Assembly: GCA_035454605.1 (NCBI GenBank)
Contig: DATIGQ010000081.1
Span: 6,151-70,150, forward strand
Reading direction: 5' to 3'
DNA: 64,000 bases
DNA from: Terriglobales bacterium
GTDB lineage: Bacteria; Acidobacteriota; Terriglobia; Terriglobales; Acidobacteriaceae
In this document: positions 1 to 10,053 of the stretch, in pieces
How the letters are laid out: every line of letters starts with the position of its first letter
Numbering within the stretch: position 1 is the first letter of the stretch
Position numbers and translations under genes: made by a program
Notes under the pieces: model-generated
The model's input: only the letters and a program-made list of their open reading frames with translations
What the model was told of the DNA's origin: nothing
The model's database searches: none

Positions 1-2
1 GA

Positions 3-3000
3 CTACATCGCGCGACGCGCGGTGACTTCCACTCCCAGCAATGCGGCGGTAGCGGCGAGCGTGTCGGAGGCGTTGGCGGGGTCACGGCCCACGCGCAGGT
101 ACATGGTTTCGCCAGGCGCACACCCGGAAATGGTGGCACCGGTGAGCACCGCGGAGTTCCGCTGGTTAGCGGTGGCGTTATTGGCGTCGGCGACGGTCTG
201 CTCGCTGTTGTACGTGGGGCTGAGCAGATCTTCGCCGTCGGCCAGGCATGCGGTACGGAGCGTCCAAACCACGGAATTGGTCGAGGCAGAACCGGAAAAC
301 CAGATGAACTTCACGTCGACGCCGCCGGTCGAGGTCCAGTCGGCGGGCAAGGTGACGTGGAAGGTGGCGGTGAGGGCGGAGCCATCGGCGAAGTCGAGCG
401 CGCCAAAGCGGTGCGGCGACGTACCGTAGCAGGAGGCCGCGGGGGCACTCGAGGTGGGCAGATCGAAGCTGGGGGCTGCGGTCGAGTTGTTGCAGCCTGC
501 AGCCGAAAGCCAGAACCTGGCAGGATAGCTCACGGTGTTGCCGGCGGCTTCGGCATCAAGCGTCTTGTTGGTGAGCGTGTCGGCGGTGTCGCGTCCCACG
601 ATGGTGTCGCTGGAGGTGAAGGGGACCATGTTGGCGGTGGGGCCGATCCCGGTCTCAACATACAGATTCTTGATCGACGCTGCGGCCGTGCCCATGTCGT
701 ACGTATTGTCTTCGTTCGGGAAGAAGATCCCGGAACCGTCGATATACCAGCGGTTTCCAACACCGATTTCGCCGAAGGCCAGCCTGGCTCCGTCCGCGTC
801 ATTACAGAAGTAGAAGTCGTCCGTGGCAGCGCCAGCCTTCAGGAAGATGCACGCCTGGGCAGACGTTCCGGTGTCGGTGTTTTCCACGGTAAAGGCGGTA
901 TTCGCGTTCTGCGTCTTGGAAAGTGTCTGTGCTTCGGTGAAGGTTTGCGCCAGGTTCAGGATGGCAAGCGTGCCATCTGCATTGGGCGGTGCCAGGGTTC
1001 GGGTGGTGGCGGTAGTGAACCCGGAAATCTGGAAGGCCAGTTTCTTGGTGGAGTCCACGTCATCCGTCACCCGGAAGGTGTTATCGGCGAACTCCGGTCC
1101 GCCACCACCGCCCTGATCGGCCGTGCAGGTGATGACGCCGGCGGAGGAGATGGCGCTGACCTTGTCGGTGCCCGAACAGGTGAGCGGCTGGACGGTAGCC
1201 GAATCGGCGTTGGGGATGGTCACCGTGCGGTTGGCGGTGGGGTCGGTGATGGAGAAAGTGGTCTTGAAGGAATCGAGGGTAGAGCCTTCGAACTCCAGGT
1301 TGCCGCCGAAGTGCACCAGGCCGGTCCCGCTATGAAGCGCGTAGTTGGTCGAGCCTGCGGTCTGATTGTCGATCTTGATGCCGTAGTTGGTGGTCACCGT
1401 GCCCGCAGAACGGGCATTCGACTCAACCCACAGGCCCATCATGTCGCTGACGGTGGTGCCCGCGACCGACATATCCACGTAACTGTTGAGGCCGACCGCC
1501 TTGGAGACGTTCCCGGCCGAGCCCTGAACATAGGTGCTGGCCTGAATCGCCTTCATGATGGTGACCAGACCGGGCGCCTCGTGGATCGCCCTGCCGTCTA
1601 CGCCGATGACATTGCCCTTGGTTCCGGAGGTGTGCACCGCTACCCCGATGCCGGCCAGTCCCATGGTGACGGCGGCGGTGGTGTTGTCCTGGTGCAGTCC
1701 GGTAAAGCCCACCGAGTCGGTGGCTGCGCCATTCAGCACCGCAGCAAAATCGTGCGTGTCGTTCAAGGCCGTCTGTGAGGTGGCTGCGAAGCTCGCGATG
1801 GTGGGCCCTACGCGAGTTCGGCCGGCGCCGAAGTAGTCCCGGGGCCGGTTGGCGACGCTGGCGCCGATGTCGCGGGCATTGTCGGCCGCGAACAGCAGGT
1901 CGGCGGCACCCACGCTCATCGAACCGGAGGAGAATGACAGGGTGGGATCGGTGACTCCGGCGTCGAAGGTCCAGGTGAAACCGGAAGCGTTGCCGAAGGT
2001 GACCGAGCGAATGTCGGTGGTGGTGATCTTGGCCGTGATGTCATCCGGGGCCGGCACCGTGTCGAGCGCGAATTTGACCGGAACATCGTTGCCGGCGATG
2101 GCGCCATCTTTGAAGTTGGCGTCGGTGGCCGGTGCAGCGTTAACGGCGACACTGTCGCCGGAGCCGCCGGCTCCGCCGTCGTCGTCCGAGCAGACGATCT
2201 GATTGGTGGCGTTGATGGTCAGCGCGCCGCCGTTCACGTTCGCGGAGCAGTTGCCCACGACATTCCACTCAGGGACGTAGTTGGCGGTGAGGTTCTGCGC
2301 CTGCTTCAGCGCGAAATAGTTGCTACGGTCGGGGTCGTACCAGCGCAGCTCGCTCCCGACCGCGAGCGAACCCGTCAGAGTGAGATCGGCCTTCAGCCCG
2401 ACTTCCTTCCATTGCGGCGGGTTTACGCCGTCGCCGCGTATCAGGTGAATGACCTGGCCGCTGGCCAGCGTCCGATTCACGCCTCCTTCGAGGGCGATAT
2501 TCGAGTTGTTGGCGATGGTGGTGTTGGAATCCCCTGAATAGATGATGAGTAGCTGGCCTATGGATGACCCCGTGAAATCCGTAATGACGGTGGGGGAAGT
2601 GTTGGCGGTCTTCCAGACACTGAAACCCGCGACCGAGGGCGTGGCCGAGTTCGTGGCCAGTACAGGGACGGCCTCGGTGTTGTCGTTGCGGGAGGGCGGG
2701 ATCATCGTCCCGGAGCCCAGGTCGAAATTCCTCCCGACCGCGACCCTGGTTCCTGCTCCGCTCGCTCCATACGAGATGGGCAACTGCATGGGCTTGACGA
2801 GGAAGTTCCCGATGGTGGTGTTGCCGTCGGTCCAGTTGTCGGTGGCCAGAGAGCCGCCCACCACGATGCCGTAGTCCGAACGGTCGCCTGCTCCTTCGAG
2901 CGAGCGCACCGTGTTGCCGGTGACATAGATCCTCGTCTTGTTGACCAACTCTATGCCCGCCCACGCACCGCTCACCCCAAGCGTCCGGCTGACGCCGTTG

Positions 3001-4475
3001 AATCCGAAACCGTCGATCAGGTTCCCGTGAATGAACACGTCCTGCGTCGAGCTTCCTGCCAGCACGATTCCCTGGCCATAGCAGCGGTAGAGCGAGTTTT
3101 GGATAACCGCAACACGCACCGCGCCCGTGCTCTGACCCAACTGGATGCAGGGATTGCTCTGCGTGGCGGAAATCTGCCCCACGTCGCGGATGGTGTTCCC
3201 GATGACTACGTTCCAACCCGTCTGCGCCGTGTTGTTTTCAAGGGAGATGGCAGAGTTCCTGGTTTCGTCGAAGGTATTGCCCTTGATGAGCGAGTTCATT
3301 CCGGCGAACTCCACGCCCATATTGCCCATCTTGTAGAAGTGGTTATCCGCGATGGTAGCGTTCGATACCCCGCCGGAAAAAGCGTTGATGCCGTCCCAGG
3401 CGCCGTTGATGAACCAGTTGCCCCTGGCTTGGTTATTGCGCGACTGAGGTTCTGTCCCTACGTTGCCGCCAGAGAAGTTGATCCCCGCGCCACCCAGCTT
3501 CTCGAACATTACGCCGACGATGCTGGAGTTCGAGAGGGCGGCAGTCGCTGCATTCGGCCCGAACAGGATGCCGTAAGTCGGACCCTGCGCGTCACATCCG
3601 CTTACTGGCGACCCCTGCGGATTCTCGCCGGCAAATTTGAAGGCGCGCAGATGGACATTCTCGGTACTGGCGGCATCGTTTCCGAGTTTGACGTATGCCA
3701 GCTTGTTGCTGGCGCAGGCCCAAGTGGTGATGTGCAGCACGGTCTTGTCGCCCATCCCTTCGACGGCGACATCGCTGGAGGTGACGGCGAGGGCCGGCGA
3801 GCTACCCGTGACGGCCAGTTCGAACGTGGCCGCCCCGAGCAAGAGGTGGACGGGGCGGTCGATAGTCAGCGTGGAAGAGATGGTCTGCGCGCCTTGGATG
3901 CCGCGCGCGTCGGCTATCCCGCCGGTGGAAGGCAGCGAGTTGATACAGGCCTGGATTTTGGCGCCGGCATCGGTACCGCTGAACACATCGCAGAGACGGA
4001 TGTTGTGAAAGCTGCTGTTGGTAGTGGTGACGTTGGCGATGGCGTTATCCACGTACTGCCGCGAGGCCACCTGCATGGCCACACCCGAGGACACAATGCT
4101 GGCGCGCACCGCGGCGATGGTGGTGGGCGAAGTCGCCGGCACGCTCCAGAGCTCTTGGCTGGTGGAACCGTCGTCGAGTTGGTAGACCACCTTGTAGAAG
4201 CTGCCTGGGGGCGTGGCGCCTTCGTTGGGCACCAGGCTGACGTTGAGCGTGCCGCCGGAGCCGAGCGTGACGCTCTTCGAACCTGCGGCCACGGTTTTTC
4301 CTTCCGCCGTTTCGAAGGCGGGCCAGGTGATGAACAGCGTGCCGCCTGCCGGAGTGCTGTCGGCGCGATAGACCACGTCAACGATGGCGGTGGTCACAGG
4401 GCCCTGGGCCCGTACCGGTGGTGTGAGACCGGCGGCGAGTGCGATGGAGATCAGGCAGTAGAGAATTCGCTTCAT
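3..4475 (-). CDS. Very large (1490 aa) secreted right-handed beta-helix protein with phage tailspike/tail-fibre-like segments
   Basis: Complete ORF (ATG at 4475, TAG at 3-5). Sec-type signal MKRILYCLISIALAAGLTPPVRAQ. Pectate_lyase_3-like entry motif FSGTDAGAKIQACINSLPSTGGIADARG, followed by many NxxIxGN-type beta-helix rungs. Later tail-fibre-like segments: FSITDPTANRTVTIPNADSATV, FRVTDDVDSTKKLAFQISGFTTATTRTLAPPNADGTLA, NTYDMGTAAASIKNLYV. Strong GC3 bias. The CDS call is solid; the function is inferred. Confidence 0.8.
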   Translation of the reverse strand: MKRILYCLISIALAAGLTPPVRAQGPVTTAIVDVVYRADSTPAGGTLFITWPAFETAEGKTVAAGSKSVTLGSGGTLNVSLVPNEGATPPGSFYKVVYQLDDGSTSQELWSVPATSPTTIAAVRASIVSSGVAMQVASRQYVDNAIANVTTTNSSFHNIRLCDVFSGTDAGAKIQACINSLPSTGGIADARGIQGAQTISSTLTIDRPVHLLLGAATFELAVTGSSPALAVTSSDVAVEGMGDKTVLHITTWACASNKLAYVKLGNDAASTENVHLRAFKFAGENPQGSPVSGCDAQGPTYGILFGPNAATAALSNSSIVGVMFEKLGGAGINFSGGNVGTEPQSRNNQARGNWFINGAWDGINAFSGGVSNATIADNHFYKMGNMGVEFAGMNSLIKGNTFDETRNSAISLENNTAQTGWNVVIGNTIRDVGQISATQSNPCIQLGQSTGAVRVAVIQNSLYRCYGQGIVLAGSSTQDVFIHGNLIDGFGFNGVSRTLGVSGAWAGIELVNKTRIYVTGNTVRSLEGAGDRSDYGIVVGGSLATDNWTDGNTTIGNFLVKPMQLPISYGASGAGTRVAVGRNFDLGSGTMIPPSRNDNTEAVPVLATNSATPSVAGFSVWKTANTSPTVITDFTGSSIGQLLIIYSGDSNTTIANNSNIALEGGVNRTLASGQVIHLIRGDGVNPPQWKEVGLKADLTLTGSLAVGSELRWYDPDRSNYFALKQAQNLTANYVPEWNVVGNCSANVNGGALTINATNQIVCSDDDGGAGGSGDSVAVNAAPATDANFKDGAIAGNDVPVKFALDTVPAPDDITAKITTTDIRSVTFGNASGFTWTFDAGVTDPTLSFSSGSMSVGAADLLFAADNARDIGASVANRPRDYFGAGRTRVGPTIASFAATSQTALNDTHDFAAVLNGAATDSVGFTGLHQDNTTAAVTMGLAGIGVAVHTSGTKGNVIGVDGRAIHEAPGLVTIMKAIQASTYVQGSAGNVSKAVGLNSYVDMSVAGTTVSDMMGLWVESNARSAGTVTTNYGIKIDNQTAGSTNYALHSGTGLVHFGGNLEFEGSTLDSFKTTFSITDPTANRTVTIPNADSATVQPLTCSGTDKVSAISSAGVITCTADQGGGGGPEFADNTFRVTDDVDSTKKLAFQISGFTTATTRTLAPPNADGTLAILNLAQTFTEAQTLSKTQNANTAFTVENTDTGTSAQACIFLKAGAATDDFYFCNDADGARLAFGEIGVGNRWYIDGSGIFFPNEDNTYDMGTAAASIKNLYVETGIGPTANMVPFTSSDTIVGRDTADTLTNKTLDAEAAGNTVSYPARFWLSAAGCNNSTAAPSFDLPTSSAPAASCYGTSPHRFGALDFADGSALTATFHVTLPADWTSTGGVDVKFIWFSGSASTNSVVWTLRTACLADGEDLLSPTYNSEQTVADANNATANQRNSAVLTGATISGCAPGETMYLRVGRDPANASDTLAATAALLGVEVTARRAM

Positions 4476-4559
4476 GGCGGTTGGCTATTGGCTCTTGGCG
4501 GCTGGCCAGTTCACCTGGCGTTCAGCACTTAGCATTAAGCACTTGGCACCTGGCCAGCG
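4476..4559. repeat. 7-nt periodic degenerate tandem array (12 heptads) directly abutting the start codon of the giant gene
   Basis: Read directly: ggcggtt ggctatt ggctctt ggcggct ggccagt tcacctg gcgttca gcactta gcattaa gcacttg gcacctg gccagcg. Confidence 0.8.
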
Positions 4560-4658
4560 ACGACGCTTGGGAGACCTAGGGGCAAACACCCGTGCGGCCC
4601 AGAGTAGCCGCCCCGCGGCTGAATGCCAGGTGCTAATTGCTAGATGCGGTTTAGAAGG

Positions 4659-5111
4659 CTACTTCTCGGCCTGGGCATAGTCGCGGAGGAAGCTCTCGAC
4701 GCTTTCGACGTACACGTCGGCGAAATCCACGACCGGCCGGCGGATCTGGATGAGATCGAGGGCGGCATCGAGCTCCCAGCCGATGGCGCGCAGCAGGGCC
4801 AGGGCCATCATGGGGGCCCGGTGGATACCGGCGGCACAGTGGATGAGCAGCCGGGCTTCCGGGTCATCGAGGGCGCGGAGGCCGAACTCCACGCCACGCT
4901 GGAAGACCTCCGGCGGCTTGGGCTGGAAGTCATCTTCCATGGGGTTCCACAGCACTTCGACGCCGAAGGGTTCGGCGAGCAGGGTGTCGTCGAACTCAAT
5001 CTGCATGTCGATGATGTGGGTGACGCCCTGGCGGACGACCTCCATCATGCGTCGCTCATCCCAGATGGCGCCGCCGACCGCGATGCGGTCGGTCACCCAA
5101 GTCAGATCCAT
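4659..5111 (-). CDS. Dual-specificity (Cys-based) protein phosphatase
   Basis: 150 aa with the HCxxGxxR P-loop (IHCAAGIHRAP). The N-terminal VTDRIAVGG and the overall size fit the DSPc fold. Confidence 0.85.
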   Translation of the reverse strand: MDLTWVTDRIAVGGAIWDERRMMEVVRQGVTHIIDMQIEFDDTLLAEPFGVEVLWNPMEDDFQPKPPEVFQRGVEFGLRALDDPEARLLIHCAAGIHRAPMMALALLRAIGWELDAALDLIQIRRPVVDFADVYVESVESFLRDYAQAEK

Positions 5112-5170
5112 GAATCAGCTCGCGTCCGGCGGCGTAGGCCGCAGAAGAACACCGCGAGTCTGATTCTACC

Positions 5171-5524
5171 CTATGCATCCGTGGACTCCGCCGGCGGCCT
5201 GACTTCTTCGACAGCGATGCTGCCGAGACGGTCGAGGAGAATCTCCGCGAACGAGGGACCGGCCGCTTCCGGAGGCAGGGCGCCGGGCGCGAGGCCGGCG
5301 AACTCGAACAGGAAGCGGGCGTGCTGATGGCTCGCCTGGGACTGCTCGGCAAGGCCGGCGATGATCGCGGGCAGGGCGCGCAGCACCTGCTGCTGGGCGG
5401 ACTCGAGCGCCGCCTGTGGCGAAATGGGAACGACGAGCTCGGGCGGAGCGGGCGTCGGCGTGGCATCCGAAGCCTTGCCGTTCAGGGGTCCGTGCTTGTG
5501 CTTTCCGTTCTTGTGCGGTCTCAT
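5171..5524 (-). CDS. Hypothetical protein (117 aa), basic N-terminus, no recognisable domain
   Basis: Strong GC3 bias in this frame. No SD; the ATG lies in the U-tract of the upstream hairpin. No other Met in the ORF. Confidence 0.55.
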   Translation of the reverse strand: MRPHKNGKHKHGPLNGKASDATPTPAPPELVVPISPQAALESAQQQVLRALPAIIAGLAEQSQASHQHARFLFEFAGLAPGALPPEAAGPSFAEILLDRLGSIAVEEVRPPAESTDA

Positions 5525-5532
5525 AAAAGCGG

Positions 5533-5573
5533 AACGGGCGCCCGGCTGGGGCGCCCGTTTTCCCTTTTTCCTA
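5533..5573. terminator. 11-bp GC-rich hairpin with T-tracts on both sides (bidirectional terminator-like)
   Basis: aacgggcgccc-ggctg-gggcgcccgtt, followed on + by ttttccctttttcc. On the minus strand it is followed by ccgcttttATG, the start of the 117-aa ORF. Confidence 0.5.
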
Positions 5574-5629
5574 TCTTAAGTTCAGAATAACATACCGAAA
5601 AGGGTAAAAGGCGCATTTTTCTTTGAAGT

Positions 5630-6154
5630 TTATTTGCCCTCCCTTCTTTCGCTTAGCGTGAAAGTGACATTTTTTGGCTCTTGACACGCATCGGATGCCG
5701 GGCGAGGGTGCGGCTCCACATGGCCAGGCAAAGGAGGCATGAGACCGAGGTCGAGCAGCCTACGGCTCAGGCGATCGAGGGCTTTCGGATAGCCGCGGTT
5801 GATGGTGGCACGGTCACAACCGAGCAAAATCGCAGCTTCCTCGCGGGAATACTCTTCCAGCGTGATGCGGGCGATGAGCCTCTGGTCGAAGCGGTCGAGG
5901 CGGCCGAGGCAGCGCTCTACGTCATAGACAAAGATGACGATGTCCTCGAAGGTCGGGACGCGCAGGGTGCTCACGCTGGAACGGAAGAACTCACGGCCCA
6001 GAAGCGCCGGAAGCCGGCCGAGCTCGACGGACATGCGAAGGAAGCGCCGCAGGAGGGCAACGGTTCGTCCACGGTAATGAACAAGGTCGGAATTGGGACA
6101 GCGGACGCGATGCCGCCGGTGGCGGCGAATGCCAGGAACCAAGCGGCGGCTCAT
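5630..6154 (-). CDS. Sigma-70 region-4-like HTH protein (174 aa)
   Basis: C-terminal LIARITLEEYSREEAAILLGCDRATINRGYPKALDRLSRRL resembles a sigma70_r4/ECF HTH. There is no clear canonical region 2. ATG at 6154 is preceded by GGGAGG and overlaps the upstream ORF's stop by 4 nt (ATGA). Confidence 0.65.
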   Translation of the reverse strand: MSRRLVPGIRRHRRHRVRCPNSDLVHYRGRTVALLRRFLRMSVELGRLPALLGREFFRSSVSTLRVPTFEDIVIFVYDVERCLGRLDRFDQRLIARITLEEYSREEAAILLGCDRATINRGYPKALDRLSRRLLDLGLMPPLPGHVEPHPRPASDACQEPKNVTFTLSERREGK

Positions 6155-6330
6155 GCGCACCTCCCGGCACCGGCCAGGCGGCGGCGTTCGGCGGCCAGTT
6201 CCTCCCGGCGCGAGTAACACCGTCGACAGACGGAAAGCTGCTGCCCCTGCGGGCGGAGTCCGAGTGCTCCGCACTGTTCGCAATACTTGGGCTCGAGCAC
6301 CACGCTCTGCCCTGCTTCTGCTTGCGGCAT
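6151..6330 (-). CDS. Small zinc-ribbon protein (59 aa)
   Basis: CxxC...CxxC pattern (YCEQCG ... VCRRCY). ATG at 6330 is preceded by GGAGGA (ttGGAGGAaacgATG). The stop overlaps the next start, indicating translational coupling. Confidence 0.6.
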   Translation of the reverse strand: MPQAEAGQSVVLEPKYCEQCGALGLRPQGQQLSVCRRCYSRREELAAERRRLAGAGRCA

Positions 6331-6420
6331 CGTTTCCTCCAAAGCAAAAGAGCCCTGCCTCCAATCCGCGGGCGCGGAATGGAAGCAGGGCTCGTTGATG
6401 TTGCGACGACCTGCCGGACT

Positions 6421-6476
6421 ATTCAGTTGTCAGTGGTCAGCAGCTTCTAGCTTCTAGCTCCTGCCACGACCGCCGA
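6421..6476. repeat. 7-nt periodic array (8 heptads)
   Basis: attcagt tgtcagt ggtcagc agcttct agcttct agctcct gccacga ccgccga, between the DUF2292-like gene and the zinc-ribbon gene. Confidence 0.75.
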
Positions 6477-6481
6477 ATACT

Positions 6482-6703
6482 TCAAGGAATCATGCGGTCG
6501 TCCTTCTTTCGTGAAAAGTAGCCCTCCTCATAGCCGGACTTGAGCACGCGTCCGTTCTGGACCACGACGCTCAGCCGGCCGGTGAAGGCGAGGGCGGCGA
6601 GCAGGCGCTCGGTAGAGGCGGAGAGCATCTCCGAGTCGCGCACCTTGCGGCGGAACTCCAGGAAGACCTGCTCTTGGGGGCCCGATTCGGGTCGGGGGAT
6701 CAT
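6482..6703 (-). CDS. Small protein (73 aa), possibly YezD/DUF2292-like
   Basis: GGAG lies 7 nt upstream of the ATG. Strong GC3 bias. GRLSVVVQNGRVLKSGYEE resembles the DUF2292 'G-x-V-x-hhh-QdGrV' core; this comes from memory, not a search. Confidence 0.6.
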   Translation of the reverse strand: MIPRPESGPQEQVFLEFRRKVRDSEMLSASTERLLAALAFTGRLSVVVQNGRVLKSGYEEGYFSRKKDDRMIP

Positions 6704-6741
6704 GGATTCGCTCCGAACTGTGGGTTATACAATCCGTACGG

Positions 6742-6770
6742 AGCATATCTTGGTGCTTGAAACGTGTCAA
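6742..6770 (-). promoter_or_regulatory. Candidate sigma70 promoter for the minus-strand operon (TTGACA-17-TATGCT)
   Basis: The reverse complement of 6742-6770 reads TTGACAcgtttcaagcaccaagaTATGCT. This leaves a ~30-nt 5'UTR with GGAG before ATG 6703. Confidence 0.6.
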
Positions 6771-6773
6771 GCA
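6754..6773. promoter_or_regulatory. 20-bp near-perfect palindrome (18/20), candidate operator
   Basis: TGCTTGA-a-ACGT-g-TCAAGCA. It covers the -35 and part of the spacer of the minus-strand promoter. Confidence 0.55.
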
Positions 6774-6798
6774 TTTTATTTCCTTTGTGGAACAAGAC

Positions 6799-6827
6799 TT
6801 GCATTGCATATAGCGATTTGATATAAA
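6799..6827 (+). promoter_or_regulatory. Candidate sigma70 promoter for the repressor gene (TTGCAT-17-TATAAA), predicts a leaderless mRNA
   Basis: TTGCATtgcatatagcgatttgaTATAAAcagcccATG. Only 6 nt separate the -10 from the ATG and there is no SD. Confidence 0.6.
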
Positions 6828-6833
6828 CAGCCC

Positions 6834-7550
6834 ATGAAATTCAAGGCGCTGCAGGAGAATCTCCGCAAGGCGCTGTGGAAGCGCATCGAGGCCGGCGAAC
6901 TGACGGGGCTGAAGCTGGCCAAGCAGACCGGCTTCCAGCAAGCGCACATTTCCAATTTTTTGAACCGCAAGCGGTCGCTGAGCCTGGACGGCATGGATCG
7001 CGTGCTGGTGGCGCAGCACATGTCGGTGCTGGACCTGCTGGACCCGGACGAGATCAACAAGCGGGCTTCGATCGTGCCCCCCAGCGAGGACGAGTTCGAC
7101 AACGTTCTGCTGGTGGAGGGCACGGTGGCCGCGGGCGAGCCGCTGATCACGCAGGAGAACGTGAAAGAGATCCTGAAGTTCAAGAAGAACTTTCTGCGCA
7201 GGCTGCGGGCAGAGATGGAGTCGGCGCGCGACGACTGGCACCGCTTTGTGCTGGTAAAAGTGGACGCGCGTGAGGGCATGAGCATGTACCCGCGGCTGCT
7301 GCCGGACGCGATGGTGCTGATTGACCGCCACTACAACTCGCTGAAGCCCTACCGCAAGAATGAGCGCAACATGTACGCGGTGCGCAAGGACGACGGATGC
7401 ACCATCAAGTATGTCGAGGAGGCCGAGGGCCACTTGGTGCTCCGCCCGGAGAACCCCGCCTACCCGGTGGATGTGCTGGCCATCGAAGAGGGCAAGACCC
7501 AAGCCGACTACGTGGTGGGCCGCGTGTGCCACGTATCGATCGAGACCTGA
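6834..7550 (+). CDS. CI/LexA-like self-cleaving repressor (XRE-type HTH + S24 peptidase domain)
   Basis: 238 aa. N-terminal HTH (LKLAKQTGFQQAHISNFLNRKRSLS). LexA-type cleavage motif VAAGEP, Ser motif GMSMYP, and a downstream Lys (CTIKYV). Confidence 0.85.
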   Translation: MKFKALQENLRKALWKRIEAGELTGLKLAKQTGFQQAHISNFLNRKRSLSLDGMDRVLVAQHMSVLDLLDPDEINKRASIVPPSEDEFDNVLLVEGTVAAGEPLITQENVKEILKFKKNFLRRLRAEMESARDDWHRFVLVKVDAREGMSMYPRLLPDAMVLIDRHYNSLKPYRKNERNMYAVRKDDGCTIKYVEEAEGHLVLRPENPAYPVDVLAIEEGKTQADYVVGRVCHVSIET

Positions 7551-7571
7551 ACAGAACAGGGCGCAAACGCC

Positions 7572-7608
7572 AGAAGCCGCGGCGACCTGCCGCGGCTTCT
7601 TCATTTGC
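7572..7608 (+). terminator. Hairpin terminator after the repressor gene
   Basis: agaagccgcgg-cgacctg-ccgcggcttct followed by tcatttg. Confidence 0.5.
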
Positions 7609-7638
7609 AGAGGGCGGGGACCGGCAGCCTGCCGGCGG

Positions 7639-7983
7639 TCAGTGCTTTTTCTTTCTTTTCTTCTTCTTGTCTTTCTTCTTCTTATCTTTTTTCTTTTTGC
7701 CCTTCTTTTTCTTGTCCTTTTTCTTCTTGGCAGCGGCTTTCTTCTTGGCGGCTTTCTTCTTGGCCGCCTTCTTTTTGGCCGGAGCTCTCTTCGGCGGAGC
7801 AGCAGGCGTGGCGGGCACGGATACCACCGTGGCGCCCGAGATCTCGCCCTCGTCGCTCAACTCATCCATCTCTTCCTCTTCTTCCTCTTCGTACTGCTCA
7901 TCGAGGTTGCCGTAGTCGGGCTCACCGAAGTCGTCCATTTCGTCGTTGTCACTGGCGTAGAGGGTCTCGTCGTCGAAGTTCAT
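7639..7983 (-). CDS. Bipolar low-complexity protein with an acidic N-half and a poly-Lys/Ala (histone H1-like) C-half
   Basis: 114 aa: MNFDDETLYASDNDEMDDF...EEEEEEEMDELSDEGE then KKKAAKKKAAKKKAAAKKKKDKKKKGKKKK.... Strong SD (cGGAGGAGacATG). Confidence 0.7.
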   Translation of the reverse strand: MNFDDETLYASDNDEMDDFGEPDYGNLDEQYEEEEEEEMDELSDEGEISGATVVSVPATPAAPPKRAPAKKKAAKKKAAKKKAAAKKKKDKKKKGKKKKDKKKKDKKKKRKKKH

Positions 7984-8121
7984 GTCTCCTCCGAAATGTG
8001 GCCCAACTCGAGCGGACCGGAAGCCATTTGCCGGGCGCGCCGTTTGGAGATCACTCCGAGGTTGGATGCGTCCCGGAGCAGGCGCGGATTATAGCAACAG
8101 AAGGAGGGCTGTCAACCCGGG

Positions 8122-10053
8122 CTAGGGCCCGGAACGGACAATGAGCGTATCGCCGGGATAGAGCTTGGAGGAGGTGAGGCCGTTGGCGCGTTGCAACTCC
8201 GCGACGGTGGTCCCGTAGGCGCTGGCGATGCTGTAGAGAGTCTCGCCGGACCGGACAGTGTGGACCTGCTCCCCTACCCTACCTTTTAACTGTTTGCTGT
8301 TTTTGGACTTAGGTGTGGACGCCGCGGCTTCCCGATACTCCACCGTCACCGGGCGATAGATACGCAAGAGCTGCCCTCGGCGCACATGATTACCACGCAG
8401 ACGGTTCCACTGGCGAAGCTTCTCCAAAGGAACACCGAAGTCGTCCGCGATGGACATGAGGGTGTCGCCTTGGCGGACCTTGTAGTGCACCGGCCGCTTG
8501 GAGAAGACCATGCCCTCCATGTCGCCGGGCAGGCGCTTGCCCGGTGTGACCGGGATGATGAGCTTGGCATCGGCGTAGAGCGCGTCGCCGGTGAGGTTGT
8601 TCACCTTGGCAATGGAATCGGTGGTGGTGCGGTACTTGCGGGCGATGGTGGAAAGGGATTCGCCGCTGGCCACCTTGTGGTAGCGCCACCAGACTCGCAT
8701 GTCGCGGGGGATGGCAGCCATGGCCCGCTCGAAAGTCTCTTTGGTGCCCCAGGGCAGGCGCAGATCGAAGGCGCCTTGGCGCGGCGTAGTCAAGCGCAGC
8801 AAGCCCGGATTGAGGTCTTGCAGAATGCTGACCGGAACGTCAACGGCCTCGGCCGCGAGCCGGAGGTCGAGGGGATAATCCACGGTCACGCGCTCCACCG
8901 CCAGGGGTTGGGCCTCCATGGGCTGGAAGCCGTACGCCCCGGGATTCTTGGCGATGATCATCACTGCCAGGATGATGGGAACATAGTTCTTGGTTTCGCG
9001 AGGCAGGACGTCGCGCTTGTAAAGCTCCCAGAAATCGGCGTAGCCGGTGCGCTCCACGCCTTTCTGCACGTTCAGCGGACCGGAATTGTAAGCGGCGATG
9101 GCTAGGTGCCAGTCGCCGAACTGTTCGTAAAGATCCCGCAGATGCCGGGCAGCGGCGCGCGTGGCCTTCTCCGGGTCCTGCCGCTCATCGATCCACCAGT
9201 TGCGCTGCAGGCCGTACTCGCTGGCGCGAGCCGCCATGAACTGCCACATCCCACGGGCGCCGGCACGCGAGACCGCCAGGGGATGGAAACCGGATTCCGC
9301 CTGAGCCAGATAGATGAGATCCTGCGGCACACCCTCTTCTCGCAGGATGCGCAGGATCGTATCCCGGTAGCGCGCGGCACGCTCCCAGGAATGCTGCATG
9401 GTGTTTCGGCCCTTGTTGGTGTTGCTGAAGTACTCCAGGTAGCTGGCGACGACATCGTTCATCACCAAGGGGATGTCCGACGCAGTGGTGCGCAGGCCGG
9501 CCTCGGCGCGGGCGCGCAGATTGGGATCCACGGGAAAGGTGACCGCGTTGGCTTCGTCAATGGGAGCAGGCTCGGAGTGCTGCTCGGTGAAGCCGTCGCC
9601 CTGCTTGAGCGCCTCCAGTTCCAGGCGGTTCACGGTATCGACGATGCGCTCAAACTCTTCCTCCAGACGGCGATCCGAGCGAGCGTTGACAGGGCCCGTG
9701 AGTAGCAGGTCGAAGGCACGGTCAAAGTGGGCGCGGGCGGCATCCAGGTGGCCGGCGGCATATTCGGCCTGGCCGTCCTGGTATTCCTTGCGGACCTTGG
9801 CCAGCAGGCCTTCCACCGGATCCACGCGCTTCACGGATGCTTCCGGCGCTCGCGCCACAGGCTTGGTGGAAGGCGCGGTATTGGGAGCAGCGGCGGTGGT
9901 TGCCGTTAGAACCGGTGCCTGAGCGCCGCTCGGGGGAACCGCAGCGTCGTGCCGGGAGCTTGTGGTCTCACAACCGGAACCGAGAAGGACCAGTGCCGCC
10001 AGAATCGTGATGGAAAAGAGCCGTTTATGAATAGCCATATCCTCTGGAACCAA
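8122..10053 (-). CDS. mltD: Membrane-bound lytic murein transglycosylase D-like (SLT domain + 3 LysM), lipoprotein
   Basis: SLT motif AESGFHPLAVSRAGARGMWQFM and three C-terminal LysM repeats. Lipobox LLGSGC. Alternative ATG start at 10038. Confidence 0.9.
   Translation of the reverse strand: MVPEDMAIHKRLFSITILAALVLLGSGCETTSSRHDAAVPPSGAQAPVLTATTAAAPNTAPSTKPVARAPEASVKRVDPVEGLLAKVRKEYQDGQAEYAAGHLDAARAHFDRAFDLLLTGPVNARSDRRLEEEFERIVDTVNRLELEALKQGDGFTEQHSEPAPIDEANAVTFPVDPNLRARAEAGLRTTASDIPLVMNDVVASYLEYFSNTNKGRNTMQHSWERAARYRDTILRILREEGVPQDLIYLAQAESGFHPLAVSRAGARGMWQFMAARASEYGLQRNWWIDERQDPEKATRAAARHLRDLYEQFGDWHLAIAAYNSGPLNVQKGVERTGYADFWELYKRDVLPRETKNYVPIILAVMIIAKNPGAYGFQPMEAQPLAVERVTVDYPLDLRLAAEAVDVPVSILQDLNPGLLRLTTPRQGAFDLRLPWGTKETFERAMAAIPRDMRVWWRYHKVASGESLSTIARKYRTTTDSIAKVNNLTGDALYADAKLIIPVTPGKRLPGDMEGMVFSKRPVHYKVRQGDTLMSIADDFGVPLEKLRQWNRLRGNHVRRGQLLRIYRPVTVEYREAAASTPKSKNSKQLKGRVGEQVHTVRSGETLYSIASAYGTTVAELQRANGLTSSKLYPGDTLIVRSGP

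Follow-up and report, generated by a model that had tools for sequence, protein, structure and literature searches.

The question raised by this locus is whether a phage-type regulatory switch in a Terriglobales genome controls a single secreted protein or forms part of a larger element that encodes a particle. The locus is found at positions 3..7550 of a stretch of 64,000 nucleotides (nt) from a Terriglobales bacterium (GenBank assembly GCA_035454605.1, contig DATIGQ010000081.1, positions 6,151 to 70,150 of the forward strand), which was analysed as a whole and is referred to as the window. It comprises the gene for a CI/LexA-type repressor and, divergent from it, a minus-strand string of six genes that ends with a giant gene. 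In the first-pass annotation, made from the letters of the window alone, the module had been taken to drive only a secreted effector, rather than to belong to a prophage. This reading was not supported by related genomes, in which the giant gene is succeeded by genes for terminase, portal, capsid and tail hub (the nearest relative, numbered L002, and about 60 others). The module is probably one end of a phage-derived element of ~20-24 kb, holding its immunity repressor, its early operon and the first of its late genes, and the virion genes are presumably present in this genome as well.

Gene calls were based on the list of open reading frames (ORFs), on family models from Pfam, PHROGs and NCBIfam, and on PDB sequences; all seven genes of the module that had been named in the annotation were present in the ORF list at the coordinates given below. 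Relatives were collected by a terminase-alignment scan of one genome per species, which yielded 330 stretches with a relative of the large terminase (TerL); the best 80 of the 330 were retrieved and mapped by tblastn. The window genome and that of L002 are not GTDB species representatives. The best 80 were labelled Terriglobales, Acidobacteriaceae, Korobacteraceae, Sulfotelmatobacter or higher Acidobacteriota taxa, with one Clostridia exception (L079, DASPLH010000001.1), which is 45-69% identical to the window proteins and whose label 'Clostridia bacterium' is probably an error of binning or labelling.

The nearest relative (L002, GCA_035573675.1) carries the same module and the same flank (asparaginase, TonB-dependent receptor, SLT-LysM protein and a small lysine-rich protein) at 86-94% identity. 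Past its giant gene lie two small ORFs, the genes for the large terminase, a HipA_2 kinase, a DUF3037 protein and an HK97-type portal, and further structural ORFs. The terminase was recognised by phrog_2 (expectation value (E) 4.5e-22) and Terminase_6C, the portal by PF04860 (E 9.8e-44). The layout was the same in two more distant relatives with this flank (L004 and L005), and genes for a scaffold-like protein, a probable capsid protein, a head-tail adaptor (phrog_442, E 4.1e-13 in L022), a 776-amino-acid (aa) hub and an endolysin were seen in distant relatives (L004/L086 and L088). About 60 of the 80 loci showed one gene order, namely the phosphatase gene, the N-terminal domain of the giant protein, TerL, HipA_2, DUF3037, the portal, and proteins of 210 aa, 139 aa (a coiled coil), 323 aa, 216 aa (the adaptor), 136 aa and 190 aa; the 323-aa protein, the most conserved of the element, is probably the capsid protein. 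The genes for the repressor, the 73-aa protein, the zinc ribbon (detected in most) and the sigma-like protein lay upstream in most loci that reached that far.

The statement of the annotation that no virion genes are in view is literally true of the window. Their absence follows from where the window begins, namely at the giant gene's stop codon; the switch without a virion is an artefact of this edge, and the central inference drawn from it is unsupported. The source contig (74,682 nt, a Terriglobales metagenome-assembled genome that holds a protein identical to the giant protein) exceeds the window by up to 10.7 kb. An exact search of JGI metagenomes with the 39-mer at window positions 1-39 gave no match; exact look-ups of the giant protein, the repressor and protein P0001 led to no long contig, and that of the phosphatase to a Logan contig of 2.9 kb.

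A complete element, ~24 kb from repressor to protease, was found in chromosome OY969886.1 (L004, L022 and L086). Its far end encodes proteins of 326, 776 and 75 aa, an endolysin (phrog_3513, E 1.7e-35), a weak spanin-like ORF, three small ORFs and an S49-type protease, beyond which lies a convergent host 2-oxoacid dehydrogenase operon. The 776-aa protein was modelled at a predicted local distance difference test (pLDDT) score of 76, and its first ~220 residues adopt the baseplate-hub fold of Mu gp44, MuSo2, T5 pb3 and VgrG (Foldseek E ~1e-7). For this hub (P0058, L086 10001..12331), homologs number more than 1100, with identities of 53-88%, and no Pfam domain was recognised; the structures matched by its model also include GH16/lectin-like beta-sandwiches (from rank 35 onward) and Shewanella SO2946 (2a5z). 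Terminases of Stx2-converting phages and of Roseobacter phage CRP-7 share ~28-30% identity with that of the element, the capsid-like protein gave no tblastn match among GenBank phages, a scan of viral contigs with the N-terminal 488 of the 776 residues of the hub found nothing, and a TerL alignment scan of IMG/VR recovered three relatives among 2.9 million contigs.

The HipA_2/DUF3037 pair, which in relatives occupies the interval between terminase and portal, corresponds to the PADLOC models PDC-M66A (E 2.8e-11) and PDC-M66B (E 6.8e-12). A related kinase toxin is neutralised by DUF3037, and the pair protects against a phage (PMC12548924). This defence pair of a HipA-like kinase and DUF3037 (PDC-M66; 'DS-6') is found here inside a structural operon together with a Cys-based phosphatase, at a position outside the window.

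The gene content of the complete copies might suggest an ordinary active temperate phage, short-tailed or small siphovirus-like, that inserts site-specifically beside the 2-oxoacid dehydrogenase operon and whose integrase and replication proteins are divergent or supplied by the host or a helper. Such a phage would be expected to have the complete-looking set of head, connector, hub, fibre and lysis genes and the CI/Cro-type switch with an autocleavage site that are seen here; circulating phages likewise have a hypervariable protein of the receptor-binding type, a defence pair of a kind common in prophages is carried, and relatives occur on three IMG/VR contigs. Widespread Terriglobales 'proviruses', which may be of the same family, are moreover treated as proviruses in PMC11924767 and PMC5900883. 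In three divergent full-length copies, however, none of the genes called at either end gave a match to a recombinase of the tyrosine or serine type, or to a transposase, primase, helicase, polymerase or Rep protein. In particular, no recombinase match was obtained among the genes called from flank to flank in OY969886.1 or at the right ends of L087 and L088 (att repeats were not searched), and no match to a primase, helicase, polymerase or initiator was obtained in full-length copies, in which small match-less ORFs could hide one. A tRNA scan of the window found none, the junction of the element within it included. The first-pass annotation had held that structural and integrase genes to the left would make this an ordinary prophage; the structural genes were found there in relatives, an integrase at neither end.

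The position of the element also speaks against an active phage. Its right neighbour was the 2-oxoacid dehydrogenase E2 gene in six of six loci with a visible end (L036, L086, L087, L088, L103 and L110), and this neighbour stayed constant across hosts as divergent as L086 and L087/L088, between which the host E2 proteins are 60-62% and the E1-beta proteins 77-79% identical. Host-flank and element proteins have diverged in parallel, and their identities to the window rise and fall together: in L002 they were 86% (TonB-dependent receptor), 86% (SLT-LysM), 94% (S24 repressor) and 93% (phosphatase), and in L004 58%, 54%, 80% and 70%, respectively. An empty site, with the SLT gene directly beside the 2-oxoacid dehydrogenase operon, occurred in none of 80 metagenome loci with an SLT-LysM homolog, and no insertion site could be defined. 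The genes themselves have stayed intact, judged by recovery in a single alignment among the 80 species representatives (TerL in 79 of 79 loci, the capsid-like gene in 58 of 59, the portal gene in 57 of 63 and the phosphatase gene in 59 of 60). Vertical inheritance, a fixed locus and intact genes, as looked for in a gene transfer agent (GTA) or another domesticated element, were all found, with the left flank shared only within the clade of the window. The left neighbour there is the SLT-LysM gene; distant copies have other neighbours, none of them an integrase. For this reason, the SLT-LysM gene and the gene for the lysine-rich 114-aa protein, which had been considered as members of the element, were rejected.

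Given this evidence, an active phage is rather unlikely. Because the element lacks integrase and replication genes and is vertically inherited beside the 2-oxoacid dehydrogenase operon, it is most likely non-autonomous as a whole, that is, defective or domesticated. The term 'domesticated', which the annotation had used, may apply to the whole particle-encoding element, not to a cassette of switch plus effector. A more far-reaching proposal, put forward tentatively and with somewhat more doubt than confidence, is that the element is a domesticated, damage-triggered particle system comparable to GTAs or PBSX, inherited vertically since the early Terriglobales radiation and intact in hundreds of species, whose fibre is exported by the Sec pathway.

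The ways in which the element decays bear on the model of the first-pass annotation, in which the regulatory cascade was co-opted to serve a giant secreted depolymerase or adhesin along with the phosphatase, with virion genes absent or irrelevant. In the natural deletion remnants L103 (~7590..9500) and L110 (~5713..9990), both of them JGI metagenome contigs, SLT-LysM, repressor and phosphatase genes and a stub of the giant gene abut E2, and the virion genes are gone; L110 also retains the early regulators. The switch and the phosphatase outlive the structural genes in these two remnants, which favours co-option, and the same model draws on the Sec-type leader found in 50 of 54 homologs of the giant protein and on the place of the phosphatase and giant genes as the first conserved late genes. 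In both remnants, however, the giant gene, which is intact in the window, has been reduced to a stub of 0.3-1 kb, so that the giant protein is not what survives. Its sole conserved part is, moreover, a phage fibre-anchor domain; in relatives its gene lies against the structural gene that comes next, or overlaps it, and in a rearranged variant it directly follows tail genes; and the nearest relative carries virion genes. Co-option is accordingly judged improbable. Other losses were seen in L131, where the phosphatase gene is joined to the hub gene and the giant gene was undetected, and in L036, where the genes from scaffold through hub have been lost and the N-terminal region of the giant gene has been kept.

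The small size of the element (~20-24 kb) and its own terminase, portal, capsid and connector, with no tape measure, tube or sheath recognised, would also be compatible with a capsid-forming satellite, similar to a capsid-forming phage-inducible chromosomal island (cfPICI), that forms heads by itself and needs a helper phage for induction and for the remaining tail parts. A baseplate-hub protein and an anchored fibre are encoded, however, the integrase and the primase or replication module typical of satellites were not found, and the locus is fixed and co-diverges with the host, all of which makes a satellite highly improbable.

The switch itself was examined from the repressor outward. The repressor gene (6834..7550, plus strand) encodes a protein of 238 aa with an Xre/HipB-like helix-turn-helix (HTH) domain and an S24 domain, which was recognised by Pfam PF00717 Peptidase_S24 (E 1.1e-10, 41.6 bits against a cut-off of 23.3 bits) and phrog_4 (transcriptional repressor, E 9.5e-16). 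The match to TIGR00498 (lexA) was confined to the C-terminal part (E 1.2e-5, 25 bits against a cut-off of 110.95 bits), and the protein is not a LexA proper, its N-terminal domain being an Xre/HipB-type HTH and not the winged helix LexA_DNA_bind. In the PDB, the HTH domain was closest to HipB (E 5.5e-5, using the repressor family profile); this profile matched HTH domains only and no LexA/CI catalytic domain, and the single sequence matched nothing. The self-cleavage determinants that the annotation had listed are all present, with Ala100-Gly101, Ser149 and Lys192 lying in the motifs VAAGEP, GMSMYP and TIKYVE of the translation, respectively.

Conservation of these residues is limited to part of the family. 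Ala-Gly, Ser and Lys are jointly kept in 9 of 21 aligned orthologs (10 of 22 counting L020), which correspond to the clade of the window. Four further orthologs keep Ser and Lys and lack the Gly, the repressor of L010 has Thr in place of Ser and retains Lys, and in six or seven distant orthologs (L016, L057, L072, L073, L077, L079 and L081) the S24 Ser is replaced by Ala or Pro and the Lys by Arg, with no Ala-Gly pair. The rest of the protein is well conserved in the repressors with replaced Ser and Lys. Having lost the dyad and the cleavage site, they cannot self-cleave, and their lineages would need another induction signal or none. Self-cleavage of the window repressor is plausible from its sequence, and would not be a property of the whole family.

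The switch region (6704..6833, 130 nt) separates the repressor gene from the first early gene and contains back-to-back promoters predicted by a promoter scan. The putative early promoter on the minus strand consists of TTGACA (6770..6765) and TATGCT (6747..6742), spaced by 17 nt, and the putative repressor promoter on the plus strand of TTGCAT (6799..6804) and TATAAA (6822..6827), also spaced by 17 nt. Since TATAAA ends 6 nt ahead of the repressor ATG (6834), the repressor mRNA is probably leaderless. Short repeats of the TATA(T/G)C/GATAT type in the same region are candidate operators. Both promoter-like sites were recognisable in most orthologous intergenic regions, and TTGAC and (A/G)CAAG, the reverse of CTTG(C/T), are kept in most of 19 such regions. 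The annotated CI/LexA-type switch, divergent from the minus-strand string, was thus borne out by an S24 repressor with back-to-back promoter-like sites.

The repressor HTH (6834..7050) is nearest to HipB, and the element of the relatives holds genes for HipA_2 and DUF3037 (L002 17468..19267) and for a Cys-based phosphatase. A phosphorylation link between HipB-like repressor, HipA_2 kinase and phosphatase is conceivable, as a speculation.

The early operon begins with an ORF of 73 aa in the position of cro (6482..6703, minus strand), whose product shares 57-89% identity among orthologous loci and had no significant family match. Its earlier label 'DUF2292-like' was not supported, as the window protein gave no match and the ortholog in L004 matched PF10055 at E 0.12 (12.4 bits against a cut-off of 22 bits). 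The spacer that follows (6343..6481, 140 nt), located between the 73-aa and zinc-ribbon genes, contains a short direct repeat, GCTTCTAGCTTCTAGCTCC, read on the plus strand. Next comes a gene for a Cys4 zinc-ribbon peptide with the pattern CxxC...CxxC (6151..6342, minus strand; 63 aa, or 59 aa from the second Met), which had no family match, whose orthologs are 38-55% identical and which overlaps the third gene by 4 nt. This third gene (5630..6154, minus strand) encodes a sigma-70 region-4-like HTH protein of 174 aa, counted from an internal ATG at 6154, and is a candidate for the activator or antiterminator of the late genes. The region-4 label drew support from weak matches to Sigma70_r4_2 (Pfam, E 0.0087) and to TIGR02937 (E 0.0017) over residues 75-133, which correspond to region 4, and the protein also matched phrog_36 (transcriptional regulator, E 4.9e-4). 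All matches to sigma families are below the family cut-offs, however: the protein lacks the status of an extracytoplasmic function (ECF) sigma factor, with region 4 only at 16-18 bits against cut-offs of 25.7 and 42.9, and the precomputed matches of its L004 ortholog to Sigma70_ECF and r4_2 are likewise weak and below the cut-offs.

Downstream of the sigma-like gene, an extended -10-like motif, TGTTATTCT (5592..5584, minus strand), is followed after ~25 nt by a GC-rich hairpin (5559..5533) with a T-run ending at 5525, the hairpin that had been noted in the string by the first pass. This terminator lies ~70 nt past the sigma-like gene. A motif of the form TGnTAT[TCG]CT was present 3' of the sigma-like gene in 26 of 32 orthologous loci, and a hairpin with a T-run 55-170 nt after this gene was the best hairpin in ~15 of 30 loci, with differing stem sequences. 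If TGTTATTCT is a promoter, termination at the hairpin would release a small RNA of ~50 nt, like lambda 6S RNA; this segment corresponded to no Rfam family, and a scan of the whole window at gathering thresholds gave no match to Rfam.

The first ORF past the terminator is a fast-evolving one of 117 aa (5171..5524, minus strand) that lacks a family match; its ATG (5524) directly adjoins the end of the T-run at 5525. In tblastn searches it was 77% identical in L002 and 35-56% identical in L005, L007, L010, L081, L094, L095 and L101. The L004 group gave no protein match, yet an ORF of similar length and a spacer of 470-600 nt are retained in the 12 aligned loci. A second, conserved -10-like motif, GGTAGAAT (5163..5170, minus strand), is located 52 nt upstream of the phosphatase ATG. 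In 46 of 70 loci, the 160 nt ahead of the phosphatase gene contain the pattern TA[GT]AAT, and about eight of the remainder showed GTAAAAT or GTACAAT. A sigma-54 reading of the conserved sequence GGTGGCAC near the late promoter motif was rejected, as its spacing to the GC element misfits TGGCAC-N5-TTGC. The proposed division into an early operon (73-aa protein, zinc ribbon and sigma-like protein) closed by a conserved terminator, and a late operon that opens with the phosphatase and giant genes, agreed with these data.

From this arrangement, the following mechanism can be proposed for the lineage of the window. The S24 repressor, made from a probably leaderless transcript, would shut the divergent early promoter. 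DNA damage would lift repression through RecA-stimulated cleavage of the repressor by its own Ser149/Lys192 dyad at Ala100-Gly101, and the early transcript would then yield the 73-aa protein, the zinc-ribbon peptide and the sigma-region-4-like protein. The late genes would sit behind the terminator, which itself lies ~25 nt downstream of the extended -10-like motif. Because a terminator and a promoter-like motif precede the late genes, one of the early proteins probably acts as antiterminator or activator, as lambda Q does at PR'-tR' or as do PrtN and Xpf. The late operon would comprise the 117-aa ORF, the genes for the phosphatase and the giant protein and, left of the window, those for large terminase, HipA_2/DUF3037, portal, scaffold, capsid, adaptor, tail-tip hub and endolysin. 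Both self-cleavage with SOS induction and the production of particles are predictions of this scheme.

The first conserved late gene (4659..5111, minus strand), upstream of the giant gene, encodes a Cys-based dual-specificity phosphatase of 150 aa. Its identification in the annotation was upheld by Pfam PF00782 (DSPc, E 3.8e-9, 36.9 bits against a cut-off of 33.5 bits) and by HCAAGIHR in the translation. The P-loop HCAAG[V/I]HR (HCx5R) is kept in 63 of 63 orthologous loci, the median identity of the protein is 69%, and 59 of 60 loci were covered to at least 0.8 by a single alignment.

The giant gene (3..4475, minus strand) is a complete ORF of 1490 aa, with a Sec-type leader (residues 1-24), an anchor beta-sandwich (~28-125), a probable beta-helix and a variable, fibre-like C-terminal part. 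The sequence itself gave nothing usable in Pfam, PHROGs, NCBIfam or PDB. Among 57 homologs of 1000-2200 aa, only the first ~150-230 residues are common. An AlphaFold model showed the leader as an N-terminal helix and residues 28-125 as a beta-sandwich (pLDDT 95-98), and was poor beyond ~230. In Foldseek searches of BFVD, the domain 28-125 matched phage tail-fibre N-terminal domains (E 4.8e-6, root-mean-square deviation 1.4 A, 32% identity), one of them named 'Lambda-like tail fibre protein N-terminal domain'; its top PDB matches, which are weak, were to parts that anchor fibres in phage necks and in the tail tip complex of Ur-lambda. The tail-fibre ancestry that had been claimed for the giant protein is therefore supported by the fold of its anchor. 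The beta-helix label derives from the NCBI name of the identical protein and from Pfam beta-helix or pectate-lyase matches in four homologues (P0007, P0026, P0054 and P0057); the AlphaFold model is confident only at 28-125.

Receptor-binding fibres usually combine a conserved anchor with a distal part that varies, and the giant protein is built in this way. The virion parts of tailed phages are expected to be cytoplasmic and to carry no export signal; in this respect the giant protein departs from a tail fibre, as it has a leader of basic (K/R) residues, a hydrophobic stretch and an AxA end. The Sec-type leader that the first pass had reported thus proved to be common: in 50 of the 54 homologs, basic residues are combined with a run of 12 or more hydrophobic residues and an AxA-like terminus, with a leader sequence that is not itself conserved. 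We know of no exported tailed-phage fibre. Possible roles of the leader are the secretion of a depolymerase that binds particles after lysis, a membrane tether or a function at the cell surface.

Several observations weigh against the module being the end of a domesticated, damage-triggered particle element. The virion genes placed to the left of the window are predicted from relatives. In two IMG/VR contigs, L092 (UViG_3300047171_000146) and L093 (UViG_3300047494_000274), the order varies, with head genes between the regulators and the giant gene; these contigs contain, in this order, repressor, zinc ribbon, sigma-like, scaffold, capsid, adaptor and tail genes, a giant fibre (which carries a leader in UViG_3300047171_000146), terminase, HipA_2, DUF3037 and portal, and neither a phosphatase nor a 776-aa hub was detected in the available stretch. 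Variants without virion genes exist (L103, L110, L131 and L036). The left flank is unconserved in distant lineages, so that some mobility or rearrangement has taken place. The loss of Ser and Lys in distant repressor orthologs indicates that SOS control is not a family-wide property, and a Sec-type leader on a homolog of tail fibres is at odds with virion assembly in the cytoplasm. Finally, no tape-measure, tube or small-terminase gene was recognised in the element.

Among known systems, the immunity and late-control regions of lambdoid phages (cI, PRM/PR, cro, and Q at PR'-tR') are alike in having an S24 repressor with Ala-Gly and a Ser/Lys dyad, a divergent first early gene, back-to-back promoters ~30 nt apart, a probably leaderless repressor mRNA, and a promoter-like motif with a close terminator ahead of the late genes. 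In contrast to them, the element lacks N, O, P, cII, cIII, int and xis, its early proteins have no detectable similarity to Cro or Q, its repressor HTH is nearest HipB, and its late operon opens with phosphatase and fibre genes instead of lysis genes. R- and F-pyocins are controlled by the S24 repressor PrtR and the activator PrtN, and PBSX of Bacillus subtilis by an Xre repressor and the sigma-like late factor Xpf. Both systems resemble the element in their fixed, integrase-less structural cluster, in combining a damage-sensitive repressor with a small positive factor (both predicted for the element), and in a lysis module at the far end. Pyocins, however, are devoid of head, terminase and portal, unlike the relatives of the element described here, and PBSX particles, made by Firmicutes, have contractile tails; neither system showed a relationship to the element at the sequence level, and the element is known from genes and not from particles. 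GTAs of the RcGTA type share a vertically inherited, order-level head-tail cluster that selection keeps intact and that is without integrase, replication genes or a recognisable small terminase. They differ in their control by the host regulators CtrA and GafA instead of a phage repressor and in having a tape measure and tube, and they are defined by the packaging of host DNA, a comparison to be read with the element known here at the level of genes. By analogy, then, the control logic would resemble lambdoid immunity with Q, PrtR/PrtN and Xre/Xpf, and the fixed, intact, integrase-less cluster that of PBSX and GTAs.

Proviruses of Terriglobales have been described by Eichorst et al. 2018 (cluster 153; PMC5900883) and by Demina et al. 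2025 (group (ii); PMC11924767). According to these reports, they occur in the same host families (Koribacteraceae, Acidobacteriaceae and SbA1), with one related provirus per genome across distant sites, and belong to Caudoviricetes without relatives among isolated phages. They are probably the same element, a match made by description only. Missing integrase and replication genes, a fixed locus, a switch and an exported fibre are unmentioned in the accessible text of both.

Terriglobales rank with the most abundant bacteria in soil, and very little is known of their viruses and gene exchange. If domesticated, the element would represent a damage-inducible particle former fixed in hundreds of species, a candidate route of gene transfer or kin killing in soil, and a case of a phage fibre with an export signal. 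An exported fibre would in turn point to an extracytoplasmic step in which particles are armed, or to a separate role of the fibre at the surface or as depolymerase. If the element is merely a widespread defective prophage, a useful annotation is gained, together with a caution on gene clusters at window edges.

To the right of the module, the gene for the 114-aa protein (7639..7983, minus strand) is convergent with the repressor gene. Its product is acidic in the N-terminal half and ends in a tail rich in lysine and alanine, with AKKKAAKKK repeats, which recalls histone H1-like nucleoid proteins; it has no family match and is 93% identical in L002 and 71% identical in L005. The G+C content is even across the window. 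The promoter predicted for the 114-aa gene (8115..8088) is a perfect TTGACA-16-TATAAT with an upstream TG, matching at 12 of 12 positions.

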